Source: an uncultured delta proteobacterium
Lineage (GTDB): Bacteria; Desulfobacterota; BSN033; UBA1163
Reading direction: 5' to 3'
DNA: 64,000 nucleotides
NCBI GenBank assembly: GCA_963708295.1
Contig: CAVPSJ010000004.1
Coordinates: 864,001 to 928,000 of the forward strand
Shown here: positions 15,139 through 49,437 of the stretch, one piece after another
How positions within the stretch are numbered: position 1 is the stretch's first letter
How the letters are laid out: every line of letters starts with the position of its first letter
The notes under the pieces: generated by a model
What the model was told of the DNA's origin: nothing
The model's input: only the letters and a program-made list of their open reading frames with translations
Database searches by the model: none
Translations under genes and position numbers: made by a program

Positions 15139-15164
15139 GAGGAGATTCCCTTTTCAGGAGCCTG

Positions 15165-22109: not shown

Positions 22110-22143
22110 CATTGCGGGGTGAACTTTCAGAGAGGAGGTGTCT

Positions 22144-29012: not shown

Positions 29013-29783
29013 CTAAAAAGCCAGCCACCCTCCGTCCACGAAAAGGGTTTGGCCCGTGACGAAGCTCGATGCTTCCGAGGCGAGATAGATGGCTGCTCCG
29101 ATAATCTCTTCGGGCTTACCAAATCTTCCCATTGGAGTCCTTCGGAGCAAGTTTTCTGAGATGATCTTCGATTCTCTCATCCCTTTCGTCAATTCCGTTT
29201 CGAGATAGGCCGGGCCAATGGCATTAACCTGGATGTTATGCTTCGCCCATTCGATGGCGAGGACTTTGGTCAATTGGAGAATCCCCCCTTTTGTGACACA
29301 ATAGGCAACTTGTCGGGGAAAACCCACCACAGCTCCCACAGAGGCCATATTAATAATCTTTCCTCGTCCCTGTTGAATCATTACCTTCCCTACAGCCTGG
29401 GAGAGGAGGAAGGTCCCAGTGAGATTGACTTTCAGAACGTCCTCCCATTCGTCGAGGGTCATCTCCTCCGCCTTTTTCAAGACTGGACTGATTCCGGCGT
29501 TGTTCAGGAGGATATCGATTTCCGGGAAGACATCCAGAGTAGCTTCTATGATCCTTTGGATTTCTTCAGGGTTCCCAATGTCAGCAGAGACGGGTAGTAC
29601 TTTTCCCCCAAAGGCTTCTATCTCTCTTGCCACCCTTTCAAGGGCGGACAGATTTCTGCTCACAATAACAAGGTCAGCTCCAGCCTGGGCAAAACCCCTA
29701 GCAATGGCCTCGCCAATGCCCCGGCTCGCTCCCGTTACAATCGCTGTCTTTCTCTCCAGATTGAAGACCTTCAATCTATCCAT
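29013..29783 (-). CDS. SDR family oxidoreductase (gluconate-5-dehydrogenase/KduD-like)
   Basis: TGASRGIG, NNAG, YCVTK (YxxxK), NAIGPAY, GQTLFVDGG. Confidence 0.92.
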   Translation of the reverse strand: MDRLKVFNLERKTAIVTGASRGIGEAIARGFAQAGADLVIVSRNLSALERVAREIEAFGGKVLPVSADIGNPEEIQRIIEATLDVFPEIDILLNNAGISPVLKKAEEMTLDEWEDVLKVNLTGTFLLSQAVGKVMIQQGRGKIINMASVGAVVGFPRQVAYCVTKGGILQLTKVLAIEWAKHNIQVNAIGPAYLETELTKGMRESKIISENLLRRTPMGRFGKPEEIIGAAIYLASEASSFVTGQTLFVDGGWLAF

Positions 29784-31154
29784 ATTTCGAAACTCCGCAA
29801 TGAAGTCGCTATCCTCCAATCGAACCCCGCTTTCCTCTCCCTTCTATCAAAAATTCTTTTTGCTTTGAAAGTGGTTCGTTCGAGGGTATTGAACGGAACA
29901 AATTTAATCTCAGGTGTCACCTGACACTCCTCCCTTAATCCCTTCTTCAACGAAGGTTCAATCCTGGGGATGTCCTCTTCCCTCTTGCACTCCACAACAA
30001 CGGTGCATACTATCGATATTTAGCTGTGGATCTGTGGTCAGTTCGATGCAAAATTCGTCGGAAAGCTCACAAAAACTTCGGACAACCTTCTCCACCTGAA
30101 CAGGATAGAATTTTGCCCCTTTGTAAATAACCATGTCGTCTGCTCTTCCAAGGATGCCTCCCACTGAACGGGCATGGGTTCGGCCGCACTTGCACTTCCT
30201 CTTGTCGAGCGAGCCGAGATCATTCGACCAGTAGCGGATCATCGGGGTGGCTTCTTTCGTCAGGTGGGTGATCACAAGGACTCCGACTTCGCCGGGAGCA
30301 CAGGTCTTCTTCGTTTCCGGATGAATGACCTCAATCAGGAGATGATCCTCTACCCAATGAATCCCTGCCTTCTCAGAACATTCTGAAGCAACCGTTGGAC
30401 CGATCTCGGCAAGGCCGAAGTAATCGAACGCTTCAATGCCCAGTCCCTTTTCGATCTTCTCCCGCGTTGCCGAGACTTCGGCACCCCCTTCTCCACCAAA
30501 GCATCCTATCCTTAAAGGGATGTCCTCAGGTGAAATCCCTCTCTGCTTCAGGCGTTCAGCAATATGAAGGGCGTAGGAAGGGGTGGAGAGGAGGACCGTA
30601 GAGCCTGGGTTAAGGAGGTAATCGATCTGACGTTCGGTCATGGAGGCTCCAATAGGAATGACGAAGCAACCCAGTTCTCGAGCTGCGTAATGAGTGGACA
30701 TTCCAGCTACCCAGAGGCCATAGCTGAATCCGTTCTGGATAATGTCCCCTGGCCGAACGCCAAAGGTCCACATGGTTCTAGCGGTCCAGCGGGAGATATT
30801 TCTTACATCTCTAAAGGACCAGAGGTTATTGACCGGGGCACCCGTCGTTCCAGAGGAGGGGTGGAGCTCCGCCCAGGTTTCCGGGGGGGTCACCGTATGC
30901 CGGCCGAAAGGAGGAAAAGCGAGTTGTTCGTCACGAAGTTCTGTCTTTGTAACAAAAGGACAATAAATGATATCGCTTATAGTTCGCACATCGTCAGGCT
31001 TGACGCCAGCTTCTTGAAATTTTTGTCTGTAGAATTCCGAATCTCGATAGCATCTCTTCAACTGTGCTTTGAGCCGGCGGAGTTGAAGGGCCTCCAGCTT
31101 ATCCCTATCCATCGTCTCGATCTCTGCATCAAAATATTTTCGGGTTTTGTTCAT
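29771..31154 (-). CDS. paaK: Phenylacetate-CoA ligase family aryl/acyl-CoA ligase, frameshift near 30000
   Basis: PFVTKTELRD, HPSSGTTG, FSYGLWVAG, YFGLAEIGP, TKEATPMIRY, GRADDMVIYKG. The C-terminus continues in ORF 29771-29995 (TLERTTFKAKR). Confidence 0.88.
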
Positions 31155-33433: not shown

Positions 33434-34878
33434 ATGAAGCCTATTATGACAAAAAAGGATTATATTCAGAGCCTCAAAGAACTCCATCACGCGGTCTATT
33501 ATAACGGGAAGCGCGTGGAGGATGTGACCGAGCACCCTGCCCTCCGGCCCCATATCAATGCGGCGGCCCTTACCTACGAGCTCGCTCTCCGCCCGGAACA
33601 TGAAGCGCTGATGACGGCGGTCTCTCATCTTTCGGGCAAAAAGATCAATCGGTTCACCCATATTCATCAAACCGTGGATGACTTGATCAAGAAAGTCCAG
33701 ATGCTCCGTCTCATTGCCCACGAGACAGGGCTCCTGTTTCCAGCGGTGCGTGGGACTTGACGCGTTAAACGCGGTCTATATGACCGCTTATGACATCGAT
33801 CAAAAATATAAGACAGACTATTTCGAGAAATTCAAGAAATATCTTCTTCATGTCCAGGAAAGCAATGTGATGGTGGTCGGCGGAATGACCGACCCGAAGG
33901 GTGACCGGTCCCTTTCTCCGTCCAAACAGGCAGACCCCGATCTTTTTACCCACGTGGTCCTGCGGCGGTCAGACGGCATTGTGATCCGCGGGGCAAAGGC
34001 CCATATGACCGGCGGCATCAATTCCCATGAGATTTTGCTCATGCCCACTCAAGCGATGAAAGAAGAAGAAAAAGACTACGCCTTGTCCTGCGCGGTGCCA
34101 TTGAACGCTCCTGGGGTGATCCTTATTTTCGGCCGTCAGACCAATGAAGAACGCAAATGCGAAGAGGGATTCGATGCCGGAAACACCCAATTCGGGTTGG
34201 TGGGAGGAGAGGCCCTCATCGTCTTTGAAGACGTCTTTGTTCCATGGGAGAACGTTTTTCTTTGCGGTGAATATGATATGGCCGGACTGCTGGTCGAGCG
34301 GTTTGCCACGCTGCACCGCCAGAACTACGGAGGCTGCAAGGGAGGGGTTTCGGACATCCTGGTCGGAGCAAGCGCCTTGGCCGCAGAGTACCAGGGAACG
34401 GCAGGGGCTTCTCACATCAAGGATAAATTGGCGGAAATGATGCACCTTGCCGAAACGCTCTACGCGGGGTCCGTGGCTTGCTCGGCCATGGGTTACTAGA
34501 ACCCCTTCCGGGGCCTATTATCCCGATCCGCTGCTGGCCAATACGACCAAATATAATGTCACGCGCCATATCTACGAAATTGCTCGGTTGGCCCATGATA
34601 TTGCAGGCGGGATCGTCGCCACCATGCCCTTCCATGGAGACATGGAAAGCAGCGAGGTGGGCCGCTACGTGAAGAAATATCTGGCCGGGGCTCAAGGGGT
34701 CCCGGTGGAGTCGCGGATGAAGATTCTCAGGCTCATTGAAAACATGAGCGGTGGCACTGCGCTGGTTGAATCCATGCACGGCGCAGGATCTCCTCAGGCC
34801 CAGAAGGTGATGTACGGACGGTTGGGAAATCTCGAACAGAAAAAACGCTGGGCTAAACGTCTGGTTCAAATCGATTAA
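33434..34878 (+). CDS. abfD: 4-hydroxybutyryl-CoA dehydratase/vinylacetyl-CoA isomerase family, frameshifts near 33730 and 34497
   Basis: INRFTHIH, CFQRCVGLD, GMTDPKGDRS, GAKAHMTG, HRQNYGGCK, ESMHGAGSPQAQ. These include the Fe-S ligands typical of AbfD rather than HpaB. Confidence 0.88.
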
Positions 34879-34972
34879 ATCGAAAAAGGAGAGAAGAGAG
34901 GTGAGCCGGAATTCCATCCCGGACAGTCCCCTTTCTTCAACCGTTCTGGACAAAGGGAGGGCAGGTTGAAAC

Positions 34973-36242
34973 ATGGTTAAGAAAGGGAGGAAAATCGGAA
35001 AGGGAGATAAAGGGATTCGCATCCCTGAACTTCTCTGGTATGGCAATACGGAGACGACTTTACATTTCCCCTCTTCATGGTCCGTTTCTTTCTGCCCGAT
35101 GCAAGGAGAAAAGAAGAAACGACTGACGCCGGTGGGGTTCAAAAAAGCTTTCCGGCAACCCATCGGAACGAAGCCGATAAAAGATCTGGCCAGGGGGAAG
35201 CGGGAAATCGTCATCCTCTTCGATGATATCACCCGGCCCACGCCTGTTTATGAGATCGTTCCCTTCGTGCTCGAAGAATTGGAAGAAGCGGGAATCTCCG
35301 ACCGGCAGATCCGGTTCGTCGTCGCTTTGGGAGCTCATGGAGCGCATACAGCCAATGATTTTCGCAAGAAGCTCGGAGAGGATGTCCTCGACCGGTTTCC
35401 CGTTTACAACCACAATAGCTTCGATTATTGCTCCCACCTGGGTAAAACCAGCTATGGAACTCCGGTCTCCGTCAACAAAGAAGTGATGGCGTGCGATCTC
35501 AAGATTGGAATCGGAGGCTTGGTGCCCCATCCCCTTTCTGGATTCGGGGGAGGAGGGAAGATTATTCTTCCGGGCGTTGCCCACATCGATTCCATTACCT
35601 ATAACCATGGAACGCTCGTTCAAAATCACCCGGAATGCGTAGGCCTCGGAAAGATGGAAGGCAACATTCCCCGCCTCGACATCGAGGAAGCCGCGAGGAT
35701 GGCCGGACTGGATTTAAAGATCGATGCGGTGACAAACCTCCGCGGAGAGATTATCGGCCTCTTTGTCGGAGACCCGATCTTAGAACATCGCGAAGGGAGT
35801 TTGTTTGCTGGCAAAGTTTATGCGACCGTTCCAGCCAAAGGCATGGAGATCGTCGTGGTCAACGCCTATTCCAAAGCGAGTGAATGTGCCATTGCCTCTT
35901 TTATGGGTGTCGGCTTCGTTAAGGGAAGAGGGCGGCGACCTGCTGGTAATTGCCAATGAGCCCGGAGGACAGGCGCTTCACTACCTCTTCGGGAAATTCG
36001 GAAATGGCGACTCAGGGAAGATCAAAATACCCGAACAGTTTTCGAAAAAAGTCCAGCGGCTCATTATCGTCTCACCGGTGGTCGATCATGTCGGAGCCCA
36101 TTTTTTTAAGACGGCTTCTTCGATTATCTGGGTCAAAAACTGGGAAGAGGCATTAGCTCTCCTGACGACCAAGTGGGGGAAAAAGGCGAAGGTCGCAGTT
36201 TATCCAGATGGCACGGTTCAATACTTTCCGTCCCTCATATAA
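34973..36242 (+). CDS. Lactate racemase (LarA) family nickel-pincer racemase/epimerase, frameshift near 35915
   Basis: FDDITRPTP, ALGAHG, GKTSYGTPV, VPHPLSGFGGGGKIILPG, NHG. The C-terminus is in ORF 35805-36242 (KVAVYPDG). Confidence 0.88.
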
Positions 36243-36404
36243 AATTCTGAAAATAGATCTTTAAAATCGCCGATTGTTTCAAGATTTTTCAGCGGGACCG
36301 TGAAGAAGGAATTCTTCTATACGTTTCTTGTAACCGAAAATAGATAGAGAGAGAATAGGTCGAGGGACTTACTGATTTCTGGCTTCCCCTTCGCATCAAA
36401 GGAC

Positions 36405-37308
36405 TTAATCTTTTGTTACCTTCCTAGGTGGGAGAGTCACAGGAGGGTATGACTTATACATTTCGAGCTTTTGATTCAGCTCCTCCTTTCTTTCTTCGTA
36501 CATCCTATGACCCCGCTGTACCTCGCTAAGGTGCTTTGTCATCATGACCGGCGACCAACGGTCATGTCTTGATCCCTTCCTCATCAAAGACAACCTTAAC
36601 TTCACTCCCGGTTAGTTCTATTCTTCCTTGAATGCCGCACAGGGGACACTCCGCGGAATTTTCCCTCACAACGAGTAAGTTCTGGTGGCATAAGGGGCAG
36701 GTCCGAGCATCTGAGGCACCTACGTACTCCACTTCATTAGGGGGACGCTTGATCGCCTCCGCGATGTTGGAACCCAACCTCCTAACTCTTTTCATGGCCT
36801 CCTCGTTCAACAGAATTTGACCAGGTCTTGGGATATAGGTAACCACCATCTGGTCAACCAGTTTGAAGTCATGAGGCAGAAAGATTGCCATCAGAGGCAA
36901 TGCCAGGCTGATCCAATCTGTTCCACCGACCATGATATGGGCGCTATAATGAGGTTTCTGACGAAATCTCGTCCCGACGATCGCCATCCTATTTCCAATC
37001 ATGGTCAGGAAGCCGGGGGGCATCAGATGGAAGATCGGTGCACCCACTATGGCGCCGTCGCATTCGAGTAGTTTCTCGACGAAAAAAGGCATATCATCGT
37101 TTTCGATGATACACTTCGCACTCATCCCACCCTCTTTTAGTTCTCTTATCCGGCACGATTCACATCCGCTGCAAGGCTTAATGTTCAGATCATGCATGCG
37201 GATGATCTCAACTTCGGCCCCCAGTTCCTCGGCCCCCATGAGGGCTTCTTTGACCATAATTTCGGAATTTCCCAGCTTCCGACCACAACTAATCCCAAGC
37301 ACTTTCAC
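36405..37308 (-). CDS. Flavodoxin-fold flavone reductase (FLR)-like protein, paralog 4, frameshift near 36570
   Basis: KVLGISCGRKLGNSEIMVKEALMGAEELG, CSGCESC, VGGTDW, CPLCH...CPLCG. The tail is in ORF 36405-36605. Confidence 0.85.
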
Positions 37309-37399
37309 AGCAGCGACCTCCTTCTTTATCCTTCACCTCTGGTTTACTATGGAGAGAATCTGTTCCGGCAATTTTCAGGTGATGTTTCGCCCATGCCGC

Positions 37400-38176
37400 T
37401 CACACGGCAGTGATATATCCATGGTAGTCCGTCAGGAAATCGTTGGTCGGACGCTCCAGAATAAACGTACTTACAAAATCCGAGTAGGGCTCCAGAAAGG
37501 GATATCTCTGATGCTTCGCCCAGGGCGGCTCCGTGTAAGCAGGCGGTGAATCGATGACCGATTTGCGCCAGCCGTCAAAGTTCTCGTACCACTGCTCGGT
37601 CAGTCGGTGCCAGGGAAAGAGGGACTCGACCGTACGGTGGCTATAATAACGTGTGAGGCCAGGCTGCTGAATGACTTCCTTTGAATGTACATTGAGAAAC
37701 CAATCCTCCCCTTCGTCCACCGGAACACCTTGTGGGTACTTGAAGGCGATAAGCCATCGAAGAATGGTTTTGTCGTTCAGCCTCAGTTCAGAGCCCAAGA
37801 AGTCTTCTGTGGGCCGGACTGGAATGATGCAGATGGCAGGAGGGTGTGGTCCTTCCGGTCGTCCGTCCCACTCCGTGGTGTAGGGTGGTTTACCTTCCTG
37901 CCCAACAATCCTGTCGTATCCAGGAGGGAAAGTGGCCTTCAGCGTTCCACCGAGCGGCAACGATTCACGCATCCAGAGCTCAGTGACTCGCCAGTTATAG
38001 TATCCGTACGGGATAGCTTCCGGAGGTGCGGGGACGACCCGGTAGCTCAAGTAACGCGACAGAAATGGGGCGATACGGCCCAGGTTCTCCGCAATGTGGT
38101 CCCGGAGCAACCAGCGCTCCATCAGTGGCAATTCATTCATACTGGTAATATTAAGAATCAGGACACGCTTATTCAC
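37400..38176 (-). CDS. Bacterial chalcone isomerase-like protein (EthD/dimeric alpha-beta barrel)
   Basis: ERWLLRDHI, YPQGVPVDEGEDWF, LTEQWYEN..GW, PPWA...YPFLEPY and C-terminal YHGYIT match my recollection of Eubacterium ramulus CHI (RWIYKVHI, FPEGV..AEGEKW, FPFLKPY, YRGYIT). Confidence 0.75.
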   Translation of the reverse strand: MNKRVLILNITSMNELPLMERWLLRDHIAENLGRIAPFLSRYLSYRVVPAPPEAIPYGYYNWRVTELWMRESLPLGGTLKATFPPGYDRIVGQEGKPPYTTEWDGRPEGPHPPAICIIPVRPTEDFLGSELRLNDKTILRWLIAFKYPQGVPVDEGEDWFLNVHSKEVIQQPGLTRYYSHRTVESLFPWHRLTEQWYENFDGWRKSVIDSPPAYTEPPWAKHQRYPFLEPYSDFVSTFILERPTNDFLTDYHGYITAV

Positions 38177-38295
38177 GGCTCCTCCCTAAATTCCCGACCC
38201 AAATTAAGAGCATCGCAGATTTTCTAATTAACCAATGCGAGCACAGAAATAAGACTCGCCTAGTAAGGAAACTGGCAATTCAAGACTTCGTATCC

Positions 38296-38890
38296 TTATT
38301 TGATATACTCCAGCGTCTTGGAATCATACTTCAAGCAACAGGGCACGTTCAATTTGGGATTCTTAATGACCTGATAGAGTTGATACAACTGCGGCAAGAA
38401 TCTGGGGAACCCCAGGGACTCCCGTTTATTATGATTGCTCAAAGCTTCCCGGGCTCCTTCAGTCCATCCCTTCTCCAACATATACGTGGAACGCATCCTG
38501 GTGCCGGTGGGCGACTCTTCGTACTCGTGCATGGTGTAGGAGATGGGCTCGCCGCCGACGGCAGGAGCATCCGGGGCAAGGCGGCCGATGACTACTGCGT
38601 GGCGAATAGATCAGGGGGATGGGGCAAGCTTTAGGAGATTCGAAGCGCATTCGCAATGTTTTTTCCGGCATCGGCGGCTCAACCTCCCGCACAATGTGAA
38701 TGGCTCCTACGTGTCCGTTCTGGGTTGGCGGGATTTCCCAGACGAAAGAAACATGTTCATCCGGGGCCCAGAGGTAATAGGCCTTTTCCATGTTGTCCCA
38801 GAACCAGTCAATCATTTCTGGAGTCACGCCCGGAATCTCATGATAATTCACAAGCGGGTCATACTCCTTTTTAGTCTCCGTTTCTTTCAT
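38296..38890 (-). CDS. DAPG hydrolase (PhlG)/phloretin hydrolase family C-C hydrolase, frameshift near 38603
   Basis: PGVTPEMIDWFW...YYLWAPDEH, HIVRE. The second frame gives MHEY...TRMRSTY...NHNKRE (HxxxE)...FLPQLY, fitting an H/E/H/E metal-ligand pattern. Confidence 0.8.
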
Positions 38891-39006
38891 CGATCTTCCC
38901 TCCTTGAACTGCCCCATTTGCGTAGCCCCTGGTGGAACGAGACCAGTCGAGCAAATGCTAACTTTTTTTATTATCATTCGTTCCCGGACGGATGCCCCTT
39001 CGCGCT

Positions 39007-40248
39007 CTACGGTTTAGAGAGAGAAAAATCGCGAGAATAGACAGGCTGTTTCAAGAATTCCTCCGGTTTGTACTTCCAGAACTGAGAAACATTGGGATAT
39101 GTATAGATCACCGTATTCTGAAGATTTCCGCCTATCCTCTCCACCTTCCGAATATAAATGTTCTGAACCGGATTCAAATAAGGGTCCAGTTTCATGGGAC
39201 CGCGGGGAATGTCCCGAGGCTCCACTTTTTTCAAAGCCTCCAGAAGCTTCCCTTTGTTTTCAACATCTCCATTAATGGCCTTAATTGCCTCCACAGTCCA
39301 CCTTCCTCCTGTGTAGGTTCCTTCCGAGTAACAGGAAGCAGGCTTCTTTGCTTTTTCACGATAAGCCTTCACAAATTTTTTGTTGGCCAGGTTTTCAAGA
39401 GCTTCACTGTAATGGAGGGCTGTGATAATGCCCAACGCTTCGTCGCCCATGGAAGGAAGTGCATGTTCGTCCGTTATAAGCATACCAATGACAGGGATTC
39501 TTGCCTTAAGGCCATAATCCTGATATTGCTTAACGAACTGCATCCCTGAACGACCGGAAACCATGGCCAATACCGCATCGGCATCTTTTGAGAACTGCGG
39601 GAAATAAGGACTAAAATCCGTGATGGTTACAGGAACCCATAATTTTTTATTGATCTTTCCTCCCAGCTCTTCGAACGTTCTTTGAAAACCTCCCACGCTT
39701 TCCCAACCAAATGAGAAATCCAATCCTATGACGTCAATATTCCTGTACTTTAGGACTTTGTAAGCGTATTCTCCGAAAGGATGACAGGGTTGACTGGAAG
39801 CGTAGCCTGTTCGTACAATCCATTTTGCACGTTTTCTCTGCGTAAGATCATCCCCACTGACGATGGGATAAGTCGTAGGAATCTCCTTCGAATCAAGGTA
39901 AGGCGCGAGTGCATAACCGCAGGCTGATGATAAGACTCCGGTCAAAACATGGACGCCATCCTTCTCCACTAACTTTCTTACCTTTGTCATAGCTGTTGTG
40001 GGAAGCGCCTCGTCGTCCTCGGTGATCAGTTCTATTTTTCGGCCAGCCACTTGGTATCCGATTTCTTCAAGATAGAGCTCGAGTCCTAATAACATGTCCT
40101 TTCCATTTGCGGCTGCAGGCCCTGAAAGAGCCGTGATGAAGCCAATCTTAATCGGACCCTTCCCTTGGGCTTGCGATGCAGAAGACCCAAACAGGACTAG
40201 ACTAAAGGCCGCAACGATCCAAATTGCCACACACAATCTTTTTTTCAT
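39007..40248 (-). CDS. ABC substrate-binding protein (PBP1, aromatic-acid-binding type)
   Basis: Signal peptide, IKIGFITALSG, VRKLVEKDGV, DFSPY, NPVQNIYIRKVE. Confidence 0.9.
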   Translation of the reverse strand: MKKRLCVAIWIVAAFSLVLFGSSASQAQGKGPIKIGFITALSGPAAANGKDMLLGLELYLEEIGYQVAGRKIELITEDDEALPTTAMTKVRKLVEKDGVHVLTGVLSSACGYALAPYLDSKEIPTTYPIVSGDDLTQRKRAKWIVRTGYASSQPCHPFGEYAYKVLKYRNIDVIGLDFSFGWESVGGFQRTFEELGGKINKKLWVPVTITDFSPYFPQFSKDADAVLAMVSGRSGMQFVKQYQDYGLKARIPVIGMLITDEHALPSMGDEALGIITALHYSEALENLANKKFVKAYREKAKKPASCYSEGTYTGGRWTVEAIKAINGDVENKGKLLEALKKVEPRDIPRGPMKLDPYLNPVQNIYIRKVERIGGNLQNTVIYTYPNVSQFWKYKPEEFLKQPVYSRDFSLSKP

Positions 40249-40385
40249 CGCTCGCTCCTCCTTTTTATCAAAAGACTATCCTTGAGGTTATAGGTATTTT
40301 TTACTGTGGATTCCGAAATTTTCTGTGCCTTTGTGTTAGAGCGAGGGACCAATCATCTTCGACCTAAACCATTTGTGTTGAGCTT

Positions 40386-41348
40386 TCACACTAGTTCCGT
40401 GTTTTTGATGGCAGCCTCTATCGCCTGCTTCTCCTGGCTGGTCAACTCCTGCATCGGCATACGAACGCGGCCATCCCCTCCTGCCATCCCCAAGAACTGC
40501 GTCCAGTATTTGAAAGTAGCCTGCTTCTTACCGGCGGGAGTCACCTTCGCTAATGCCTTTCGAATGGGGGCGAGCCTCCTGTAGGCTTCCCAGGCTTTGG
40601 CAATCTCTCCCCTGGTCGCTGCTTCGGTGTATTCCTTCATCAGCTTCAGTTTCTTACTTTGCATGACGAAGGGCATCGGATTGGCGATCAAAGCTGGCTG
40701 ACCATTCACGCTTAGATTGATCAACCAGTTGTCCTCTGTATCGGCGTCGCTGATGATGAAGTTATCACTGCAAAGAGCTCTTGCCAATGAGATGTCGGGG
40801 GCCGGGGCAATGTCCTTGACCGCAACAATGGTTTCAATCTCGGCGAGCCTGTTGATGAGCTTGGGACTCATCAAATAACCATGGGCCACCTGGTTGAAAA
40901 GCGCAATGGCGATATTCACCCTATCTGCAATGTACTTGAAGTACTGAAAAACACCCTCTTCAGTCATGGCACCGAAGTAGAACAAAGGGTTGATGATGAT
41001 AGCAAACTCCGCGCCGATGCTTTCGGCATATTTTGTCAGCTCCAGGGTATTCTCCACAGAAGGGTCCGAGGTATAGGGCATGATGACCATGTCCCCCTTG
41101 GTCTCTTCCATAGCTATATCCATGATCCTCTTTCGCTCGGCTATCGTCTGATTGAAGGCCTCACCCATGAGACCGTTAAGAAACATTCCCTCCATATTTA
41201 ACTCGTCGATGCAGTGGCGAAGGTTGCGCCTGAAGCCTGATTCATCAATCTTATAGTCCGGAGTAAAGGGCGTTAGTGTGGCACCCCAGAGACCCTTCAT
41301 ACGCTTCCGTGCATACTCTTTCGCTTCCGATTTGCGATATTTCATCAT
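40386..41348 (-). CDS. DHDPS/NAL superfamily class I aldolase or hydratase-aldolase
   Basis: GLWGATLTPF, NGLMGE, AERKRI, Schiff-base AVKD, RVRMP. Confidence 0.88.
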   Translation of the reverse strand: MMKYRKSEAKEYARKRMKGLWGATLTPFTPDYKIDESGFRRNLRHCIDELNMEGMFLNGLMGEAFNQTIAERKRIMDIAMEETKGDMVIMPYTSDPSVENTLELTKYAESIGAEFAIIINPLFYFGAMTEEGVFQYFKYIADRVNIAIALFNQVAHGYLMSPKLINRLAEIETIVAVKDIAPAPDISLARALCSDNFIISDADTEDNWLINLSVNGQPALIANPMPFVMQSKKLKLMKEYTEAATRGEIAKAWEAYRRLAPIRKALAKVTPAGKKQATFKYWTQFLGMAGGDGRVRMPMQELTSQEKQAIEAAIKNTELV

Positions 41349-41456
41349 TAAGATTCATCCTCCTCTTCTTGCTACGTTTGCAAATGGACTCGGCCCGGGG
41401 CAAGGAAGAAACAACCTCCCTGCGCCCGGGCATCAGGATCATTCCGTCATCGATCT

Positions 41457-42425
41457 TTATTCGTAATCCCTAACGACTTTGACCGACGTCTTTTTCAATC
41501 CTTCGTACAGTTTCCTTCTGACTTCCGGCAGCAGCGGCAGCCGATGCTTCACCGTTGCTCTCGGAATCAGCCCCATCCAATAACAAACCTCTTTATACTT
41601 TGTGATCAGGTCAACCATGGGTCTGACATAAATGACCTCTTCCAGCGGACGGATGCGGTTGAAGTGAATCTTCCGCGCCTCGGACAGATCCCCCTTCTGA
41701 ACTGCATTCCACAAATCGATTAGGCCATGAGGATCCATGCACGCGTATCCTGAGAAAACCCCGTCACATCCCCATAAAAAGGTCATCATCGATGTTGTAC
41801 CCGGAAAGAGAGAGATATTCTCACGGCCCACCGCCCTGAGGGCCTGCATATCCGCCTCCAGCTTGAGCCACCGCGTATCCCATCCGTTCGCCAGTTTGAC
41901 CGCCACGAGATTGTCGATCTCCCTGAAGAGCTTTGCAAAAGCCTCCGTAGGATATTCACATGCCCCTTGATGATCGTAAGACTGGTGCATGACCACCGGG
42001 ATGTTCACCGCCCTGGCAATGGCTTTATGATACTCGACCCCATATCTCGGATCTTCCATCGTATTGAGCAGATAGTAAGCAGGGGCAAGAATCATGACCG
42101 TATCCACGCCTGCCTTCTCCAGCGCCCTGGCCTCTTCAACGCCTTCGTCGATCGTGTGTTTGTGGATCCCGGTGCAGATCGGAATTTTCCCCTGTATTTC
42201 CTCGCGGGCGATCTGAATCACTTTGATCCTTTCTTCTCTGGTCAGGCATTCTCCTTCTCCCGTATGGCCGTTTACGCCGATACCGGCGACTCCTGCCTTC
42301 ACCAGGAAGCGAAAAAGAGACCGCATGGCATCATAATCCACTTTCATATCCTCTGTAAAAACCGTGATGGGATACACATTCACCCCTGTCCATTTGCCCT
42401 TCCATTGAAACTTCTTAATTTCCAT
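41457..42425 (-). CDS. DHDPS/NAL superfamily class I aldolase
   Basis: ITVFTED..VD, NGHTGE, LTREER, AVKL, RLPL. Confidence 0.88.
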   Translation of the reverse strand: MEIKKFQWKGKWTGVNVYPITVFTEDMKVDYDAMRSLFRFLVKAGVAGIGVNGHTGEGECLTREERIKVIQIAREEIQGKIPICTGIHKHTIDEGVEEARALEKAGVDTVMILAPAYYLLNTMEDPRYGVEYHKAIARAVNIPVVMHQSYDHQGACEYPTEAFAKLFREIDNLVAVKLANGWDTRWLKLEADMQALRAVGRENISLFPGTTSMMTFLWGCDGVFSGYACMDPHGLIDLWNAVQKGDLSEARKIHFNRIRPLEEVIYVRPMVDLITKYKEVCYWMGLIPRATVKHRLPLLPEVRRKLYEGLKKTSVKVVRDYE

Positions 42426-42489
42426 TCTTGCTGCTCCTTTCTCTTTTGTGTTTTGTCTGTCTGATCTTTTCTGCAGTCAAAAAAAGTCC

Positions 42490-43732
42490 TTATTTACATC
42501 TCGCATTTCCGGTCTGTGACGGTGGCACGGTGATCTCTTCTTCCGGAATAACGACCGGTTTGCCCGTATAGGGGAATGAGAAAAATTCATTATCTTTTAC
42601 GATAAGCGCCGCCTTGTAGGGGGTAATGATCTGGTGGTCGCAAGCCCTCATGGTTACTTTGCCCCATGGCATATTGTAGCTCGCCCCTTCCCAGGCTTGA
42701 ATCAGTTTCGCCGAATCGGTGCTTCCGGCCCTCTTGATCGCATCAAACATCCATTGCATGCCATAATAGTAATCGTTCACGCCAAAAACCGGGCTATAAA
42801 AGACTTTATCCAGATCCTTGTTCTTTTCCTGAAAGTCTTTAACAAACTTCTTTTGGATCGGGTTACCGAGGTCAATGAGGCTATGATGAATGACCAGATG
42901 ACCCAGGCCCGCTTCTTTTACGTCCTGCATAATGACCGGGTCAAACAAATAGCCTCCTCCGGTTACCGCTTTGCAGCCGAGCTGGCCTTCGGTCTTGATC
43001 AGGTTCCCTAAGTCCGGGCCGAAGTTGGTCGTTAAAATCACCTCTGCGCCGGAGGCGATGACCTTGCTGATATAGGGGGCGAAATCCTTCAAGGCAACGG
43101 GATGGTAGTCTTCTCCGACAAGCTGCGAGCCGGGAATTTTCTTCAAGTTTTGTTTGAATCCCTCGCCCGCTTCGCGGCCCAGTGAGGCATCCTGACAAAG
43201 GATATAGAATTTTTTAAATTTGCTGTACTTAGCAAAATAGGCAATCGTGGCGGCGGTTCGCTGGCCTGTGGTGGGGGTGGTTCTGAACACATAAGGGTTG
43301 AACTCGCTTCCGGTGATGCTTGCCGCTTCGGAGTTCGGGTTGACCGCAACCACTTTATATTTTTCAGCCGCCTTCATCATGGCTAAAAAGACATGACTTC
43401 CGAGACAACCGATCAGGACATCCGCTTTATCCTCGAGGATCAGTTTGGTCGCTTTCCTTACCGCCACATCGGGCTTAAAAGAGCTATCTTCTACGACCAG
43501 CGTCAATCTGCTTGCCAAGGAGTCCTCCCTTTGCATTGATTTCATCCACGGCGTATTTGGCGCCGAGTTGAAAACGGTCCCCAGAGGCCTTAAACGGGCC
43601 GGATATGGCATCGACCATTCCAATCACGATTTTGTCGTTGTCGGCCCTGGCCGGAACTTCCCAGGAAATCATTAACGTAGAAATGAATAAACCGGATAAC
43701 ACGGTGAGACCCAATATCTTCATTTTCCGCAT
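42490..43732 (-). CDS. ABC substrate-binding protein (PBP1), frameshifted near 43500-43560
   Basis: N-terminus in ORF 43484-43732 (signal peptide, ISGPF, AVDEINAKGGLLG), C-terminus in ORF 42490-43623 (KPDVAVRKA, DFAPYISK, MRACDHQ). Confidence 0.88.
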
Positions 43733-43810
43733 GTTAAAACCTCCTTTGACGAATATCGAAATGACTGTGGTGATTTATCTACTTCAGCCGGTTTTCTCTT
43801 TTCACCTCCT

Positions 43811-44518
43811 TTAGACCTCAAGATATTTCTGGCGAATTTCATGGGCATCTTGTACTTCGCCCGCAGTCCCTTGAAAGACGATGGTCCCCTTGCTCATGAC
43901 ATAAAATCTGCCCGCGATCTTAAGGGCGACCTTCATGTTCTGTTCCACAAGGAGAATCGCCGTTCCAAGGTTATGGATGTCCAGGATCACCTTTTTCACC
44001 GTTTCCACAATTTTTGGGCCAAGACCTTCTGTGGGCTCATCTAGAAGCAGGATACGGGGGTTTCCCATGAGCGCCCTTGCCATGGTCAGCATTTGTTGCT
44101 CCCCGCCTGAGAGAAAGGCTCCTTTCTGCCGGTCGCGATTCTTTAACCCCGGGAAATAGTCGTAGACTTTTTCGATGGTCCAGCTTTCTTTGTCTTTTTT
44201 CTGCCGGGGTTTGATGCCGATCACGAGATTTTCCCTCACAGTCAGCCTCGGAAAGATTCTTCTCTCCTCGGGCACGTACCCCACGCCGTGATTGGCAATT
44301 TCATAAGGAGGCCATCCCGATATTTTTATCCCGTTAAAAAGAATGGACCCAGAGCGGGGGATAACCAAGCCGATGATCGATCTGAGGGTGGTGGTCTTGC
44401 CCACGCCGTTTCTTCCGAGGAGACAGACAATTTCTCCTGCGTCCGCAGTCAGGCTGATCCCCTGGAGCATATGGCTCTCTCCATAATAAGTGTCAAGATC
44501 GCTGATCTCTAAAAGCAT
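43811..44518 (-). CDS. livF: ABC transporter ATP-binding protein
   Basis: GRNGVGKTT, VPEERRIF, LSGGEQQML, LLDEPTEGL. Confidence 0.92.
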   Translation of the reverse strand: MLLEISDLDTYYGESHMLQGISLTADAGEIVCLLGRNGVGKTTTLRSIIGLVIPRSGSILFNGIKISGWPPYEIANHGVGYVPEERRIFPRLTVRENLVIGIKPRQKKDKESWTIEKVYDYFPGLKNRDRQKGAFLSGGEQQMLTMARALMGNPRILLLDEPTEGLGPKIVETVKKVILDIHNLGTAILLVEQNMKVALKIAGRFYVMSKGTIVFQGTAGEVQDAHEIRQKYLEV

Positions 44519-44521
44519 CGA

Positions 44522-45268
44522 TCATTCTTCCTCTTGGCCCAGATAAGCATCTTTCACTTGCGGATCATTCCGAATCTGCTCAGGGGAGCCTGAGGCCAGG
44601 ACTTTGCCGTAATAGATGACCGTGATCCGATTGGCGAGCCTGAAGACCACATCCATATCATGCTCAACGATGACGAGAGTTTTCCCTTCGGTCACCCTCC
44701 CGATGAGTTCAACCATCTCCGTGGTCTCGCCTTTAGACATTCCAGCGGTCGGCTCATCCAAAAGGATCAGGTCCGGGTCCATTGAAATGGTCAGGGCGAT
44801 CTCCAGGGCGCGCTGATGACCGTAAGAAAGTTCTCCCGCGATCTCATCTCTTTTCGCGGCCAGGCCGACCAGAGACATCACTCTCTCTGTCTCTTCCAGG
44901 ACGCCATCTATTTTTGAAAGAGTTGAGAAAAGGTTGTAATGGACCTTCCTTTTCGACAGGATGGCATTACGAATATTCTCAAAGACCGTCATGCTGCGGA
45001 AGATATTCGTGATCTGGAATGAACGGGCAACGCCTAAATGCGAGATTTTATGAGGAGGAAGACCCGTGATGTCTTTATCTTTAAATAAGATTTTTCCCCG
45101 GGTGGGGATATACTTGCCTGTGATGAGATTAAAAAGGGTTGATTTGCCGGCCCCATTCGGACCGATGACTGCATGTCTTTCTCCTTGTTCTATCGCCAGG
45201 TCGATTCCAAAAATCACCTTCAGTCCGCTGAAATCTTTTTGTAAACCCTGAATATCGAGAATCGCCAT
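44522..45268 (-). CDS. livG: ABC transporter ATP-binding protein
   Basis: GPNGAGKST, ARSFQ, LSYGHQR, LLDEPTAGM, VEHDM. Confidence 0.92.
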   Translation of the reverse strand: MAILDIQGLQKDFSGLKVIFGIDLAIEQGERHAVIGPNGAGKSTLFNLITGKYIPTRGKILFKDKDITGLPPHKISHLGVARSFQITNIFRSMTVFENIRNAILSKRKVHYNLFSTLSKIDGVLEETERVMSLVGLAAKRDEIAGELSYGHQRALEIALTISMDPDLILLDEPTAGMSKGETTEMVELIGRVTEGKTLVIVEHDMDVVFRLANRITVIYYGKVLASGSPEQIRNDPQVKDAYLGQEEE

Positions 45269-45274
45269 AATTTT

Positions 45275-46249
45275 TTACTGATTCTTTACAGAGACGAAGA
45301 TCGATTTCAATTTTTTCGGAATCAATCCGACGGCTCCTCGATGGAAATAGAGAACCAGGATGATAAAAAAGGCTCCCAGGATGAATTCCCATCGATCCGT
45401 CAAGTGACTGATCCAATCGGTAAAGTAGACGAAAATACCCGCTCCCAGTGCGGGTCCCAGAAAGGATCCTGTCCCTCCGAGGATGGCCATCATGATGACT
45501 TGGGTTGCCATCGCCAGGTCTACGGAGCTTGTAGCTACGAAATCCTGGAACAGGGCATAGAGGCTTCCTGCGATACCCGCGGAGAATGCCGCCATCGTAA
45601 AGACCAAAAGTTTCGAAAAATTGACGTTGTACCCGAGAAATTCAGGGCGGTCTTCATTGACCTTGATCGCCCGGATGGTGTTGCCGAAAGGCGTCCTTAA
45701 AAGATACCAGATCAGAAAAAGGAAAAACATGACGATGATGGCTGAAAGGCAATAGACCGTGCCCGCGTTCGACAGGTTGAGCGTCACGATTCCTAATTTC
45801 ATACTCTTGGGGACGAATCCCCCTATCCCGTCATCCCCGCCGGTCATGCTGCGCCATTTCCATGCGAGGGCCCAGACCAGCTGATTGAAAGCCATTGTCA
45901 ATAAGACAAAGTAGCTCGCCTTGCGCCTGACGCAGAAGAAACCGATGATCACCCCGCCGACCGCCGCTGCGATTCCCGACGTCAGGATCGCCAGGAGCAG
46001 AGGCATTCCGACGATACGTTTCAGGAGGATCGCCGTGGTATAGGCGCCGATCCCAAAATAGGCGGCATGGCCACAGGAGAGGAGGCCGGCATATCCAAAC
46101 AAGAGATTGAAACTGACTGCAAAGAGGGAGAAGTAAATGGCTTCGTTCAGTATCCGGATTTGGACAATCTTCAAAAAGACGGGGGCGAGCAGGATAAGAA
46201 GAATCGTCCCGATGAGAAGAACCCATTGGCGAAACGTTATTTCTTTCAC
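45275..46249 (-). CDS. livM: ABC transporter permease
   Basis: FNLLFGYAGLLSCGHAAYFG, TGGDDG, ILGGTGSFLGP. Confidence 0.92.
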   Translation of the reverse strand: MKEITFRQWVLLIGTILLILLAPVFLKIVQIRILNEAIYFSLFAVSFNLLFGYAGLLSCGHAAYFGIGAYTTAILLKRIVGMPLLLAILTSGIAAAVGGVIIGFFCVRRKASYFVLLTMAFNQLVWALAWKWRSMTGGDDGIGGFVPKSMKLGIVTLNLSNAGTVYCLSAIIVMFFLFLIWYLLRTPFGNTIRAIKVNEDRPEFLGYNVNFSKLLVFTMAAFSAGIAGSLYALFQDFVATSSVDLAMATQVIMMAILGGTGSFLGPALGAGIFVYFTDWISHLTDRWEFILGAFFIILVLYFHRGAVGLIPKKLKSIFVSVKNQ

Positions 46250-47118
46250 ACCTTTTCTCCGAAAAGTCCGGCAGGCCTGATCATCAGAACGACGGCCATA
46301 AGAAGAAATTGGAAGACAAGGGCAAGCTGGGGAATGAACAGGACGCCGAAAGATTGAAGCTCGCCGATCATCAGGGACGCCACAAACGTCCCCCCAAGGC
46401 TTCCCAATCCCCCAACCACCACGACAACGAAAAGGTCGGCCAGCATGTCAATTCCCATTGCCGGATGGGTGCTCAGAAAAGGCCCTGCAACAACCCCTGC
46501 CAAACCAGCCAGCGCGGCTCCCCCTGAAAAGACATACAGAAAAAGTCTGGAAACATTAATGCCGAGACAATTGACCATATCCGCATCGGATACGGCGGCC
46601 CGAATGGCAATGCCGACACGGGTCTTCATGAAAATATACAAGAGAACAAACAAGGCAACGAAGGAAATCAGAAGAACGAATAACCGGTAATCCGGATAGG
46701 TCAGCCCGGTGATGCGGACCGATCCTGAAAGGGCAGGAGGAATCCTTGAAGGCAGGGTGAAATTTCCCCATATCCATTTCACGACTTCTCCGATGACGAA
46801 GAAAATTCCAAGCGTAATGAGAAGCTCATAGGCATGGCCGAAGGCATGGACCTTCTTGAGAAAAAACCGCTCGACCAGGGCCCCGAGAAGACCGACGACG
46901 ATCGGAGCGATGACCAAAGCGAGCCAGAAATTGCCGGTCTTCACAAACACGGTGTACCCCACATAGGCTCCCACCATATAGAAGCCGGTGTGGGCGATGT
47001 TGAGCACTCCCATCATTCCGAAGACCAGACTGAAACCCGAGGCGACAAAGAATAACAACATTCCGTAAACTAGCCCGTGAAGGGCTTGAATGACAAAGAT
47101 TGGAAGCATTGATCCCAT
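46246..47118 (-). CDS. livH: ABC transporter permease
   Basis: GFSLVFGMMGVLNIAH, GIAIRAA, VVVVGGLGS, RPAGLFG. Confidence 0.92.
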   Translation of the reverse strand: MGSMLPIFVIQALHGLVYGMLLFFVASGFSLVFGMMGVLNIAHTGFYMVGAYVGYTVFVKTGNFWLALVIAPIVVGLLGALVERFFLKKVHAFGHAYELLITLGIFFVIGEVVKWIWGNFTLPSRIPPALSGSVRITGLTYPDYRLFVLLISFVALFVLLYIFMKTRVGIAIRAAVSDADMVNCLGINVSRLFLYVFSGGAALAGLAGVVAGPFLSTHPAMGIDMLADLFVVVVVGGLGSLGGTFVASLMIGELQSFGVLFIPQLALVFQFLLMAVVLMIRPAGLFGEKV

Positions 47119-47276
47119 GAGAGACCCCCCATCAGGTGAGCTGATTTTTCCTTCTTCACTCGGGCGATTTCCGAGATGGTCCCTGTCTAGACAAACGTCG
47201 TATCCGTTTTAAATTTCTTTTTCTGTGAGTCGATCCCATTGCCTCCTTCGGCGGCAGGCAGGGGTCTCTCAATCCA

Positions 47277-48083
47277 TCATGAAGTTCTATTCCTCCAATG
47301 ATTATCTTTCCCCATCGATTCTGGATGGAAAAGTTGAGCTTCAATTTCGGAGGCCGCCTTTCTCAGCTCGGCCACGATGGGTGATTTAACTTCGCACTTG
47401 ATCCTTGGCGAAGGCCCTATGACGACCACGGAACCTGCAGGTTCATTCTTATGATTGAATATGGGTACACCGATGGCGTTGATGCCGATGTCAATTTCTT
47501 CCCGGCAAAAACCGACTCCTTGTTTTTTTATCTTTTCGATATGTCTTCTGAATTTCTCGGGATCGGTAATGGTCTTGTGTGTGAGACGGGCCAATTTATT
47601 TTTCAGAATATCGTCCACCACCTCTTGCTTGGAATATGCCAGGATGGTTTTCGTGCCGGCTCCTGCATGAGTGGCAACTCTGCCACCGATATGCCCCCGG
47701 ATGCTGGAAGCCTTGGCCCCTTGAACAACATAGGTAATAATTCCCTTGCCGCCCGAAACCATTTCAATTACCACGGTCTCTCCCAGTTTTTTCCCGAGCT
47801 CTCCCAGCACCGGCATGGCAACGTTGGTTAACCCCTCGCTGACAGATTCCATGGCGGTTTGTCCCAATGAAAAAATGGAGAGGCCGAGCCTGAATTTGCG
47901 TGTGAGCGGGTTCTGCTGAAGAAACCCCTTTCGGGTCAGGATTTGAATCGTCCGGCTCACGGTGGCCACATGGAAGCCTGTGATCCGGTTCAGGTCGGTT
48001 GTCCCCAGTTCAAGATTCGTGGGACTGAAGGTCATGAGGATTTCCAGCGCCTTTTCTACTGCATTCGGTTTATTCGGAGCCAT
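47277..48083 (-). CDS. IclR family transcriptional regulator
   Basis: AVEKALEIL...ATVSR HTH, ETVVI, HAGAGTKTILAY, EEIDIGINAIGVPIF. Confidence 0.93.
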   Translation of the reverse strand: MAPNKPNAVEKALEILMTFSPTNLELGTTDLNRITGFHVATVSRTIQILTRKGFLQQNPLTRKFRLGLSIFSLGQTAMESVSEGLTNVAMPVLGELGKKLGETVVIEMVSGGKGIITYVVQGAKASSIRGHIGGRVATHAGAGTKTILAYSKQEVVDDILKNKLARLTHKTITDPEKFRRHIEKIKKQGVGFCREEIDIGINAIGVPIFNHKNEPAGSVVVIGPSPRIKCEVKSPIVAELRKAASEIEAQLFHPESMGKDNHWRNRTS

Positions 48084-48090
48084 CGAATTG

Positions 48091-48123
48091 TTACATTATG
48101 AAATATGTTTTTGTATTCTGAAA
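48091..48123. promoter_or_regulatory. Putative tandem IclR operator (copy 1)
   Basis: TTACATTATGAAA-N7-TTGTATTCTGAAA, immediately upstream of iclR. 25/33 identical to 49438-49470. Confidence 0.6.
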
Positions 48124-48220
48124 TATTGCTTGCCAAGGGAAGAATGCCCGTCAAGAAATGATCGTCGATCGCTGTACCGGTGGTAATCGACAGTTGAGTT
48201 TCTCCTGGCCCCTTCCTTCA

Positions 48221-49333
48221 TCAGACTTTCAATAATCGTTCTGCATTGAGATGATAAAGTTTTTCCTTGTCCGAGTCGCTGATCGGCGTCCTCTCAACGT
48301 CTGCAACCGCCTCCTTCATCCCCGCATAGGGATAATCAGCGGCGAAAAGAACGTGATCGGCCCCCATCGCGCTGATAGCGCAGATCAACGCCTCCGGCCT
48401 ATATCGGCCGCTCGTCGTGACGTAGATATTCTCTCTGACATATTCCGAAAGCTTTCTATTCAGGGTCCTGGGCTTATACGCCATGACATACCCTTCGTCC
48501 AGGCGGTCGAGCAGGAACGGAAGCGTTTCGCCCAGATGCCCGAGGATGAGGCGCGACTTCGGGAAGGCGTCGAACACGCCTCCTCCGACGATGCGCAGGG
48601 CGTGTGTGGCAGTCTCGGCGACCCAACTCCAGACGGGCCCCATCAGTTCGGAGTGTCCTTCATAGATTTTTCTTCCCTCCGGCGACGGCTCGGCGACGTG
48701 GAGGTAGATCGGGACGTCAAGGGCCTCGGCGCGCTCCCAGATCACCCAGAATTTCTTCTCGTCGAGATACTCCCAGTTCGTGTGCCCCTGGATCATCGTC
48801 CCCTTGAATCCGAGCTGTTTGACACACCGTTCGAGTTCATCGGCGGCCGCTTTCGGGTCCTGCGTCGGCAAATTGGCCCACCCTGCGAATCGGCCCGCGT
48901 ACTTCTGAATGATCTCCGCCTGCTGGTCATTAAACCGCTTTGCTGTGGCCACAGAGACGCCGGCGTCGTTGACTCCCTGGAACCCCGGAGAACTGCACGC
49001 GATCACCTGCATGCCGATGCCGAGATTATCCATAAGGGGAAGGCGGATTTTCTCAAAATCGACGAGGCCCGCCCCTGCGTGCGGAACCGCCTTCATATTG
49101 ACCGATGAAGGTGTGTTTTTCGTCTTCGCCCATTCGAGATTCAAACCCACGATCTCCGAGTTGCGCCAATGCTCTTCAATGCAGATCTTCTTCATCCCCG
49201 TTCCCTTGGCGCTGGCAGCCGTCTGGGCGACAGCCTCCCCTTTCCGGAGGCCTGCCTGCACGCCCGCCGTGACCGCCAGAGCTCCAAGGGCGGTCTTCCC
49301 GAGAAATTCTCTTCTTCCCATTTTTTTTCCCAT
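48221..49333 (-). CDS. Amidohydrolase-2 family (hydroxybenzoate decarboxylase-like) protein with Tat signal
   Basis: MGKKMGRREFLGK + hydrophobic stretch + AVA. KKICIEEHW, IYLHV, GHLGE, TTSG, FAADYPY. Confidence 0.92.
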   Translation of the reverse strand: MGKKMGRREFLGKTALGALAVTAGVQAGLRKGEAVAQTAASAKGTGMKKICIEEHWRNSEIVGLNLEWAKTKNTPSSVNMKAVPHAGAGLVDFEKIRLPLMDNLGIGMQVIACSSPGFQGVNDAGVSVATAKRFNDQQAEIIQKYAGRFAGWANLPTQDPKAAADELERCVKQLGFKGTMIQGHTNWEYLDEKKFWVIWERAEALDVPIYLHVAEPSPEGRKIYEGHSELMGPVWSWVAETATHALRIVGGGVFDAFPKSRLILGHLGETLPFLLDRLDEGYVMAYKPRTLNRKLSEYVRENIYVTTSGRYRPEALICAISAMGADHVLFAADYPYAGMKEAVADVERTPISDSDKEKLYHLNAERLLKV

Positions 49334-49437
49334 GTTGGCTCCCTCTCTATCTTTGGGTATTTAATTCCCGGATTTAGCTTTGACAATTTAAAATGAATCC
49401 TTCGCTATTGGAAATAATTCGAAGTATCCTTATATTA

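Follow-up and report, generated by a model that had tools for sequence, protein, structure and literature searches.

Introduction

Flavonoid ring-opening enzymes are, to our knowledge, known almost only from gut Firmicutes. [quoted passage not shown] The name Desulfobacterota has no occurrence in the main texts of PMC8084988 and PMC11153144, the supplements of the latter being a place where carriers may be listed. Anaerobic flavonoid breakdown bears on the persistence of plant phenolic carbon in waterlogged peat and thus on the "enzyme latch" debate. Here, we analyze a gene cassette at positions 36405-40248 of a stretch of 64,000 nucleotides (hereafter the window; GenBank assembly GCA_963708295.1, contig CAVPSJ010000004.1, positions 864,001 to 928,000). 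A first-pass annotation, made from the letters only, had claimed a four-gene run on the minus strand of this region, and the listing of open reading frames together with Pfam searches indeed placed four genes there, encoding the binding protein SBP1, a PhlG-like hydrolase, a CHI-like protein, and an FLR-like protein.

[quoted passage not shown] We regard it as fairly probable that the FLR-like, CHI-like, and hydrolase proteins would form a cytoplasmic module which opens the C-ring and releases the A-ring of imported flavonoid-type polyphenols, and we infer from the genes that the organism may degrade flavonoids. This reading is supported by homology, by conserved catalytic and metal-type residues, by the recurrence of linked genes in different phyla, and by the fact that related populations have intact copies. 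The first-pass annotation spoke of a catabolic "core", but the reductive step is not in the cassette. Its emphasis on a location outside gut Firmicutes was overstated, as CHI, FCR, and PHY have been known from wetland Holophaga since 2021 and CHI-like proteins occur in many phyla.

Enzyme families of the cassette

The CHI-like protein aligned over its full length with the chalcone isomerase of Eubacterium ramulus (3zph; E 4.1e-25, query residues 7-256 on chain residues 13-280), and a profile of 26 CHI-like homologues reached 5.7e-38 against the same structure, the Pfam family Chalcone_N being matched with 30.7 bits. The stretch RWLLRDHI, in which the first-pass annotation had recognized a retained RWxxxxHI histidine, aligns with RWIYKVHI of 3zph, so that the catalytic His33 corresponds to H27, a residue invariant in the 26 homologues. 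His33 is described as the catalytic base of CHI, which is also reported to make alphitonin from taxifolin (PMC9694015). In the clustered protein collection, 245 relatives were found at E <=1e-3, and every named one is a "hypothetical" protein.

The FLR-like protein matched PDB entry 7d38 (E 2e-34) and the Pfam family FMN_red (4.8e-12), with a profile of 34 homologues extending over residues 1-309 of the 310 of 7d38 (5.7e-75). Compared with the FLR of Flavonifractor plautii, 248 of 300 residues aligned at E 4.9e-34 and about 36% identity (own count), which lies within the in-silico criteria for FLR given in PMC7862272 (>=30% identity, >=80% coverage, E <=1e-10). The text of the same source, which names 7D38 once, states that 12 of 12 tested FLR homologues reduced apigenin, that a Trp149 mutant loses activity, and that His271 and Ile275 of the tail cap the substrate (PMC7862272). 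In the profile alignment, Trp149 is kept, His271 corresponds to a nearly invariant His, and Ile275 to Val. Three FLR paralogues are additionally encoded in the window and a fifth copy elsewhere in the genome.

The hydrolase was assigned to the Pfam family DAPG_hydrolase (PF18089; gathering cut-off 22.7) with 24.6 bits for the broken reading frame of the window and 28.7 bits for its intact orthologue P0123, a protein of 197 aa with 98% identity from a cluster of 53 member sequences. A profile of the family matched phloretin hydrolase 5xe5 (5.6e-16) and PhlG 3hwp (9.2e-12) in the PDB, covering only their C-terminal catalytic domains (91-276 of 280 and 104-295 of 302 residues, respectively). An AlphaFold2 model (pLDDT 95.3) retrieved 5xey, 5xe5, and 3hwp as Foldseek ranks 1-5 with query TM-scores of 0.61-0.68, ahead of other Bet v1/START proteins. 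The H/E/H/E ligand pattern claimed at first pass corresponds to H46, E69, H153, and E157 of P0123, all of which align with His or Glu of 5xe5 and share its spacing (31 residues, HxxxE). Across 39 family members, H46, H153, and E157 do not vary; at the position of E69, Glu is found in the majority only. These positions are presumed zinc ligands, after those of PhlG (His129, Glu160, His270, and Glu274).

With 171 clusters at E <=1e-3 out of 1.84 billion representatives, the short hydrolase family is small. Fusions to a fumarate-reductase-like flavoprotein with FAD_binding_2 and Succ_DH_flav_C domains (P0128 and P0294, 749-753 aa) or to a SnoaL_4 domain (378 aa) occur in some of its members. Forms of 384-427 aa carry two matched stretches; fusion and two-stretch forms together are represented by P0128, P0294, P0134, P0139, P0146, P0148, and P0223. 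No NCBIfam model exists for the hydrolase, the CHI-like, or the FLR-like protein, and no account of such a short form turned up in word searches limited to open-access text. This subfamily without N-terminal domain, its flavoprotein fusions, and the host lineage look new.

The fourth protein, SBP1, belongs to Peripla_BP_6 (Pfam 7.1e-66) and carries an N-terminal Sec-type signal; its closest PDB relatives are 4zpj (6.8e-60) and 4ey3 (6.6e-51), followed by 4eyg/4eyk, 4f06, and 4evq. Thus, Pfam, PDB profile and sequence searches, and Foldseek bore out the family calls of the first-pass annotation for all four genes, including the similarity to CHI, FLR, and PhlG which it had named for checking (3zph, 7d38, and, by profile, 3hwp).

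Integrity of the hydrolase and FLR-like genes

The gene calls of the first-pass annotation were right, although it left unmentioned that two of the enzyme genes are interrupted. The hydrolase gene changes frame near 38601-38612. In the FLR-like gene, a stop at 36562 is followed by the final 52 codons (down to 36405) in a different frame. An intact FLR-like orthologue of 300 aa (P0295) is 98% identical to the main frame of the window, and the shifted tail matches its residues 245-300 in 51 of 56 positions. In metagenome contigs of the JGI, the hydrolase is a single frame of 197 codons in all three spanning contigs (L084, L086, and L092), and the FLR gene runs through 299-300 codons without a frame change in four of four (L084, L086, L087, and L088). 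Both frame breaks are most likely assembly errors, because near-identical contigs and protein clusters keep both genes intact.

Further evidence was obtained from metagenome contigs of four public runs, which were compared over 33700-43600 (best 12 of 28 rows). Among the matches listed, one contig has one base fewer at 38605, and no row refers to the FLR break at 36562; in an RNA-library contig that spans 36394-36757, there is a single gap. One-base excesses also occur in the HpaB-like, LarA-like, and SBP2 genes, which belong to unrelated families, and metagenome contigs have one base fewer at these breaks. In Illumina-derived contigs, the excess at 34496/7 is absent from all four runs, that at 35912 from at least one run, and that at 43504/7 from at least three.

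The breaks could nevertheless be real in this strain, which would count against a working module and make the genes decaying remnants of a horizontally acquired island. The presence of two breaks within 2.5 kb and the accessory distribution of the cassette described below agree with such a decay. Beyond the single extra base in each gene, however, no further stops occur and the identity to intact orthologues is 98%, and the same kind of excess in unrelated neighbours is absent from Illumina-derived contigs. A cassette that is dead in this strain is accordingly considered very unlikely.

Single-base breaks split the HpaB-like gene (33714-34878), the LarA-like gene (34973-36242), and the N-terminus of SBP2 (~43504), and outside the window an SDR gene and an enolase-superfamily gene (L082 7423-8279 and L083 7972-9145). 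With a likeness of 90-99%, contigs from the soil metatranscriptome of run X18 partly cover the genes of FLR, CHI, the hydrolase, the aldolase-like proteins, and SBP2 (36394-43396). These RNA-library contigs were not counted as evidence of expression, as DNA carry-over is possible.

Linkage, distribution, and host

A genome scan for CHI-like proteins yielded 78 loci from Acidobacteriota, Chloroflexota, Desulfobacterota, Actinomycetota, Proteobacteria, and Firmicutes, including Holophaga foetida and CTSoil wetland genomes. Contigs of the genomes CTSoil_007, _081, and _082, which are those of PMC8084988, are represented by the loci L035, L069, and L027. Linkage was counted within 8 kb by hidden Markov models from three own alignments on six-frame translations of the 78 loci. 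A PhlG-family gene was found in 22 of them, 15 times on the same strand and within ~250 bp of CHI; both short (~200 aa) and long (~300 aa) forms are present, and long Phy forms adjoin CHI. FLR-family genes are rarer (9/78), and the trio of PhlG, FLR, and CHI families occurs in five loci, which belong to Desulfopila, Syntrophorhabdaceae, Clostridia, Dehalococcoidaceae, and Chloroflexota. Near CHI, flavoenzymes of the Fcr type were detected in 6/78 loci and those of the fumarate-reductase-like type in 8/78.

The order SBP, hydrolase, CHI, FLR is kept with unbroken genes in L084 and L086, and SBP1 precedes the hydrolase in L084, L086, and L092. In L086, the full order of ATPase, SBP2, two aldolase-like genes (96%), SBP1, hydrolase, CHI, and FLR is retained. 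It might be argued that the three enzymes serve unrelated pathways and stand together incidentally, since neighbourhoods of CHI-like genes are very varied, with 56 of the 78 loci lacking a PhlG-family gene and 69 an FLR-family gene within 8 kb. Yet the gene order is kept in contigs with 88-96% identical CHI, the trio recurs in five distant lineages, and the intergenic gaps in the cassette measure 91-119 bp on the same strand, which renders a chance juxtaposition extremely unlikely.

In one locus of a Lachnospiraceae isolate genome (L041, 3249-13451), SDR, cyclase, BKACE, 3HCDH, and cupin genes lie to one side of the CHI-like gene, and those of a 2-oxoacid:ferredoxin oxidoreductase, of PTA, and of a kinase to the other. 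SDR, cyclase, BKACE, and 3HCDH are the families of the phloroglucinol pathway characterized in PMC10470551. Two CHI-like copies, often in tandem, were found in 16 of the 78 loci (e.g., L001, L005, L006, L043, L045, L050, and L051); the paralogous copies are 32-43% identical to the window protein, and the window genome has a single copy.

In the sister population L086 (88% CHI identity), a DMSO-reductase-family molybdenum enzyme (~820 aa) and a Fer4_11 subunit directly follow FLR (8888-12084). Likewise, such a pair stands directly after FLR or hydrolase genes in L068 of the Chloroflexota (12368-15576), while the window has none at the matching place. The L086 enzyme was not designated a transhydroxylase, given that its closest PDB relatives are TMAO/DMSO reductases and pyrogallol hydroxytransferase ranks eleventh.

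The host was claimed to be a diderm and not a gut Firmicute. Pal and YbgF/CpoB exceed the NCBIfam cut-offs, so that the host is indeed a diderm, and it is no gut Firmicute. In a cluster of 88%-identical CHI proteins, one member is named "Thermodesulfobacteriota bacterium" by its source, and the host lineage is probably Thermodesulfobacteriota. No CHI was detected in 14 further genomes of the same genus or in 18 of the family, and two class-level matches (E ~4e-4) are too weak to count. DNA matches from 12 same-genus genomes include none to 36405-42480 among the matches listed; the flanking HpaB-like and LarA-like genes are matched at 70-78% DNA identity among them. As CHI is missing from the other genus genomes searched and no listed DNA match covers 36405-42480, the cassette is, by sequence comparison, accessory. 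The runs in which near-identical DNA occurs stem from metagenomes of wetland, peat, and soil. Taken together, we regard the cassette as real and probably functional, and as a horizontally acquired set for catabolism of the flavonoid type.

Proposed pathway and alternatives

In the proposed route, a Liv-type ABC system with two binding proteins would bring in the polyphenols. The FLR homologue, an FMN enzyme with a substrate-capping tail, may then reduce the C2=C3 bond of flavones or flavonols. The CHI homologue would open the heterocycle to the chalcone with His27 as base, or contract it in 3-hydroxylated substrates. Finally, the short Zn-dependent hydrolase of Bet v1 fold is predicted to cut the aryl-carbonyl C-C bond, which would yield phloroglucinol and a phenyl-C3 acid. 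The reduction of chalcone to dihydrochalcone would have to come from outside the cassette. Substrates, order of steps, and electron donor of this module are those that we infer from the families.

Several observations weigh against this assignment. The identity of the cassette enzymes to characterized ones is low (~30-36%). In the CHI-like protein, the substrate contacts His73, Asp79, Glu91, and Gln101 of CHI are not conserved, and the lid region (106-130) is shorter, with a gap of ~10 residues; the lid itself is reported to be non-essential (PMC9694015). Gly106 of FLR is replaced by Ala beside a shortened loop, where the alignment is uncertain, and most of the FLR activity was lost upon the exchange G106A (PMC7862272). 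The hydrolase is devoid of the ~90-residue N-terminal domain of PhlG and Phy, and since a phmmer search of its intact form against the PDB gave no match at E up to 1, it is tied to Phy and PhlG only via the family profile and the fold search. Furthermore, neither the cassette nor the intact contigs L084 and L086 contain an Fcr-type or other chalcone/flavanone reductase, and the phloroglucinol pathway is unclustered in the window genome, with two BKACE and two cyclase matches on different contigs. Lastly, several PDB relatives of SBP1 are aromatic-acid binders and are not known to bind flavonoid aglycones.

The deviating contact residues of CHI and the altered Gly106 loop of FLR would also be compatible with the same enzyme types acting on other substrates, e.g., non-flavonoid aryl ketones, acylphloroglucinols, aurones, coumarin-like compounds, or other plant phenolics, with an importer for aromatic acids. 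In this regard, the presumed ligands of the SBP1 relatives, the two aldolase-like genes of unassigned role which travel with the cassette, and the low score of the short hydrolase (28.7 bits vs. 235.6 and 248.8 for long CHI-adjoining forms in L023 and L073) are to be mentioned. In addition, PhlG is described as specific for DAPG (PMC8003664). Nevertheless, all three families, where characterized, perform almost only flavonoid or phloroglucinol-ketone chemistry, and their repeated co-location as well as the phloroglucinol cluster of L041 point to phloroglucinol-ring products. Other substrates are therefore rated as rather unlikely, and a flavonoid-type module is retained as the preferred reading.

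Candidates for the missing reductase were found elsewhere in the genome (Table 1): an Fcr-type protein, a fumarate-reductase-like flavoprotein which resembles the N-terminal part of a hydrolase fusion, and a VprA-like reductase. For the phloroglucinol pathway, the identity of the window-genome matches to the enzymes of L041 amounts to only 30-38%, and the best match to the L041 SDR obtained generic SDR names only from NCBIfam.

An alternative without Fcr-type reductase was also weighed, in which the trio would be a complete route and the short hydrolase the enzyme that cleaves alphitonin. FLR would convert a flavonol to the flavanonol, CHI the latter to an auronol (taxifolin to alphitonin), and the short PhlG-type enzyme would cut the ring-opened auronol to phloroglucinol and an arylpyruvate; where a reductase is needed, it might be provided by the fumarate-reductase-like flavoprotein found fused to the hydrolase domain. 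Alphitonin is hypothesized to yield phloroglucinol and a hypothetical 3,4-dihydroxyphenylpyruvate, the cleaving enzyme being unnamed (PMC11170127), and this cleavage would formally be chemistry of the hydrolase family. The absence of a reductase from the cassette and its sister contigs, and the rarity of Fcr-type neighbours (6/78), are compatible with such a route. Against it, L041 pairs CHI with 2-oxoacid:ferredoxin oxidoreductase, PTA, and kinase while lacking a PhlG-family gene within 8 kb, and CHI is adjoined by long canonical Phy forms as well. Nothing in the data discriminates between the standard and the reductase-free route, the latter being judged clearly unlikely.

The electron donor of FLR is reported as unidentified, with no direct use of NAD(P)H (PMC7862272). 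Candidate donors are encoded beside the FLR paralogues of the window (7745-8692, 17482-18255, and 23783-24745), namely a NuoF-like protein (8844-10151), a flavodoxin/4Fe-4S protein (21123-22109), and a Fer2_4 plus GltD-like pair (25007-27116). These genes lie in a region (2770-28754) that looks like a polyphenol island, with a tannase (22138-23742), a second Liv-type ABC system, CocE/NonD-type hydrolases (10237-11769, 15594-17369, and 18530-20872), and PTA and kinase genes (12645-15012). A second, looser locus at C4:283900-295690 (L083 covers 286001-300000) comprises genes for the fumarate-reductase-like flavoprotein, an IclR regulator, a CoA ligase, an enoyl-CoA hydratase, and a TRAP transporter. 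Added to these are an FLR-like gene in broken form (293031-293749), a gene of the enolase superfamily, a second short PhlG-like gene (295229-295690, 38% to P0123), and a SnoaL-like gene.

Gene array around the cassette

The cassette represents the 3' end of a same-strand array of ~13 kb, and a Shine-Dalgarno-like motif stands before the start of all three enzyme genes. The best promoter-like site was located at 49509-49481. Promoter and terminator scans over 35900-49600 returned 17 sites vs. 11.8 in shuffles (sd 3.6) and 16 vs. 14.8 (sd 4.2), respectively; with counts no higher than in shuffled sequence, they are uninformative on the operon limits. The two DHDPS/NAL-family genes reached no NCBIfam cut-off. 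The Amidohydro_2 protein (48221-49333) matched no NCBIfam model, and its twin-arginine-like N-terminus (RREFL...) would make it a periplasmic member of a usually cytoplasmic family.

Table 1. Positions of the cassette genes, the upstream array, and candidate genes for missing steps (window coordinates unless prefixed by C4).
Feature	Position	Strand	Characteristics
SBP1 gene	39007..40248	-	413 aa, Sec-type signal, Peripla_BP_6
Short PhlG/phloretin-hydrolase-like gene, whole	38296-38890	-	DAPG_hydrolase family
Hydrolase gene, 5' part	38612..38890	-	ATG at 38890, ribosome-binding site AAGGAGG upstream; P0123 residues 1-96 at 98%
Hydrolase gene, 3' part, other frame	38296..38610	-	Stop TAA at 38296; P0123 residues 87-197
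CHI-like gene	37400..38176	-	258 aa, GTG start, intact; Chalcone_N family
FLR-like gene, main frame	36562..37308	-	248 codons; FMN_red domain and Cys4 motif
FLR-like gene, C-terminal tail in shifted frame (P0001)	36405..36575	-	Carries His/Val matching FLR His271/Ile275
Two DHDPS/NAL-family (class I aldolase-like) genes	40386..42425	-	Directly upstream; Pfam DHDPS 7e-32 and 1.4e-34
Second Peripla_BP_6 protein SBP2 and Liv-type ABC importer (2 ATPases, 2 permeases)	42490..47118	-	SBP2 N-terminus frame-broken
IclR-family regulator and Amidohydro_2 protein with Tat-like signal	47277..49333	-	Head of the same-strand array
Candidate reductase 1: Fcr-type Oxidored_FMN + Pyr_redox_2 protein	C4:857035-858624		5.4 kb before the window
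Candidate reductase 2: fumarate-reductase-like flavoprotein	C4:283900-285596		53% identity to the N-terminal part of fusion P0128
Candidate reductase 3: VprA-like reductase	27300-28754
Candidate phloroglucinol-reductase-type SDR	29013..29819	-	Best match of the genome to the L041 SDR (tblastn 35%, 5.5e-51)

Comparison with known systems

Similar gene sets are present in many soil bacteria, and the cassette thus serves well as an example, being slightly unusual but no novel type of system. The known picture of the pathway is left unchanged by it. Together with its relatives, it provides a concrete and testable set of three enzymes from wetland lineages, Thermodesulfobacteriota probably among them, and it points to an uncharacterized short form of C-C hydrolase with candidate partner reductases. 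Studies on these genes could close gaps of the pathway concerning the electron donor of FLR, a non-gut reductase, and auronol cleavage.

With the CHI of E. ramulus (3zph/4d06), the window protein shares full-length homology and the catalytic histidine, while it has 258 instead of 282 aa and belongs to a large environmental clade of proteins of 245-290 aa. The phloretin hydrolases (M. abscessus 5xe5/5xey and E. ramulus Phy) and PhlG (3hwp) have the Bet v1-like catalytic domain in common with the window hydrolase and are its nearest fold in the PDB; the window hydrolase, however, consists of the catalytic domain alone (197 vs. 274-302 aa) and shows weak sequence similarity. The FLR of F. plautii (7d38-7d3b; Yang et al., 2021, PMC7862272) features the same arrangement of FMN_red N-terminal domain, Cys-rich middle, and C-terminal tail. 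The window protein does not retain Thr279 and Lys282, and the phyla given in the text of PMC7862272 do not include that of its host. The wetland sets of McGivern et al. (2021; PMC8084988) likewise stem from environmental wetland anaerobes with homologous CHI. In comparison with these sets as described there, the window has FLR in place of FCR, a short hydrolase, and a host that is probably a member of the Thermodesulfobacteriota.

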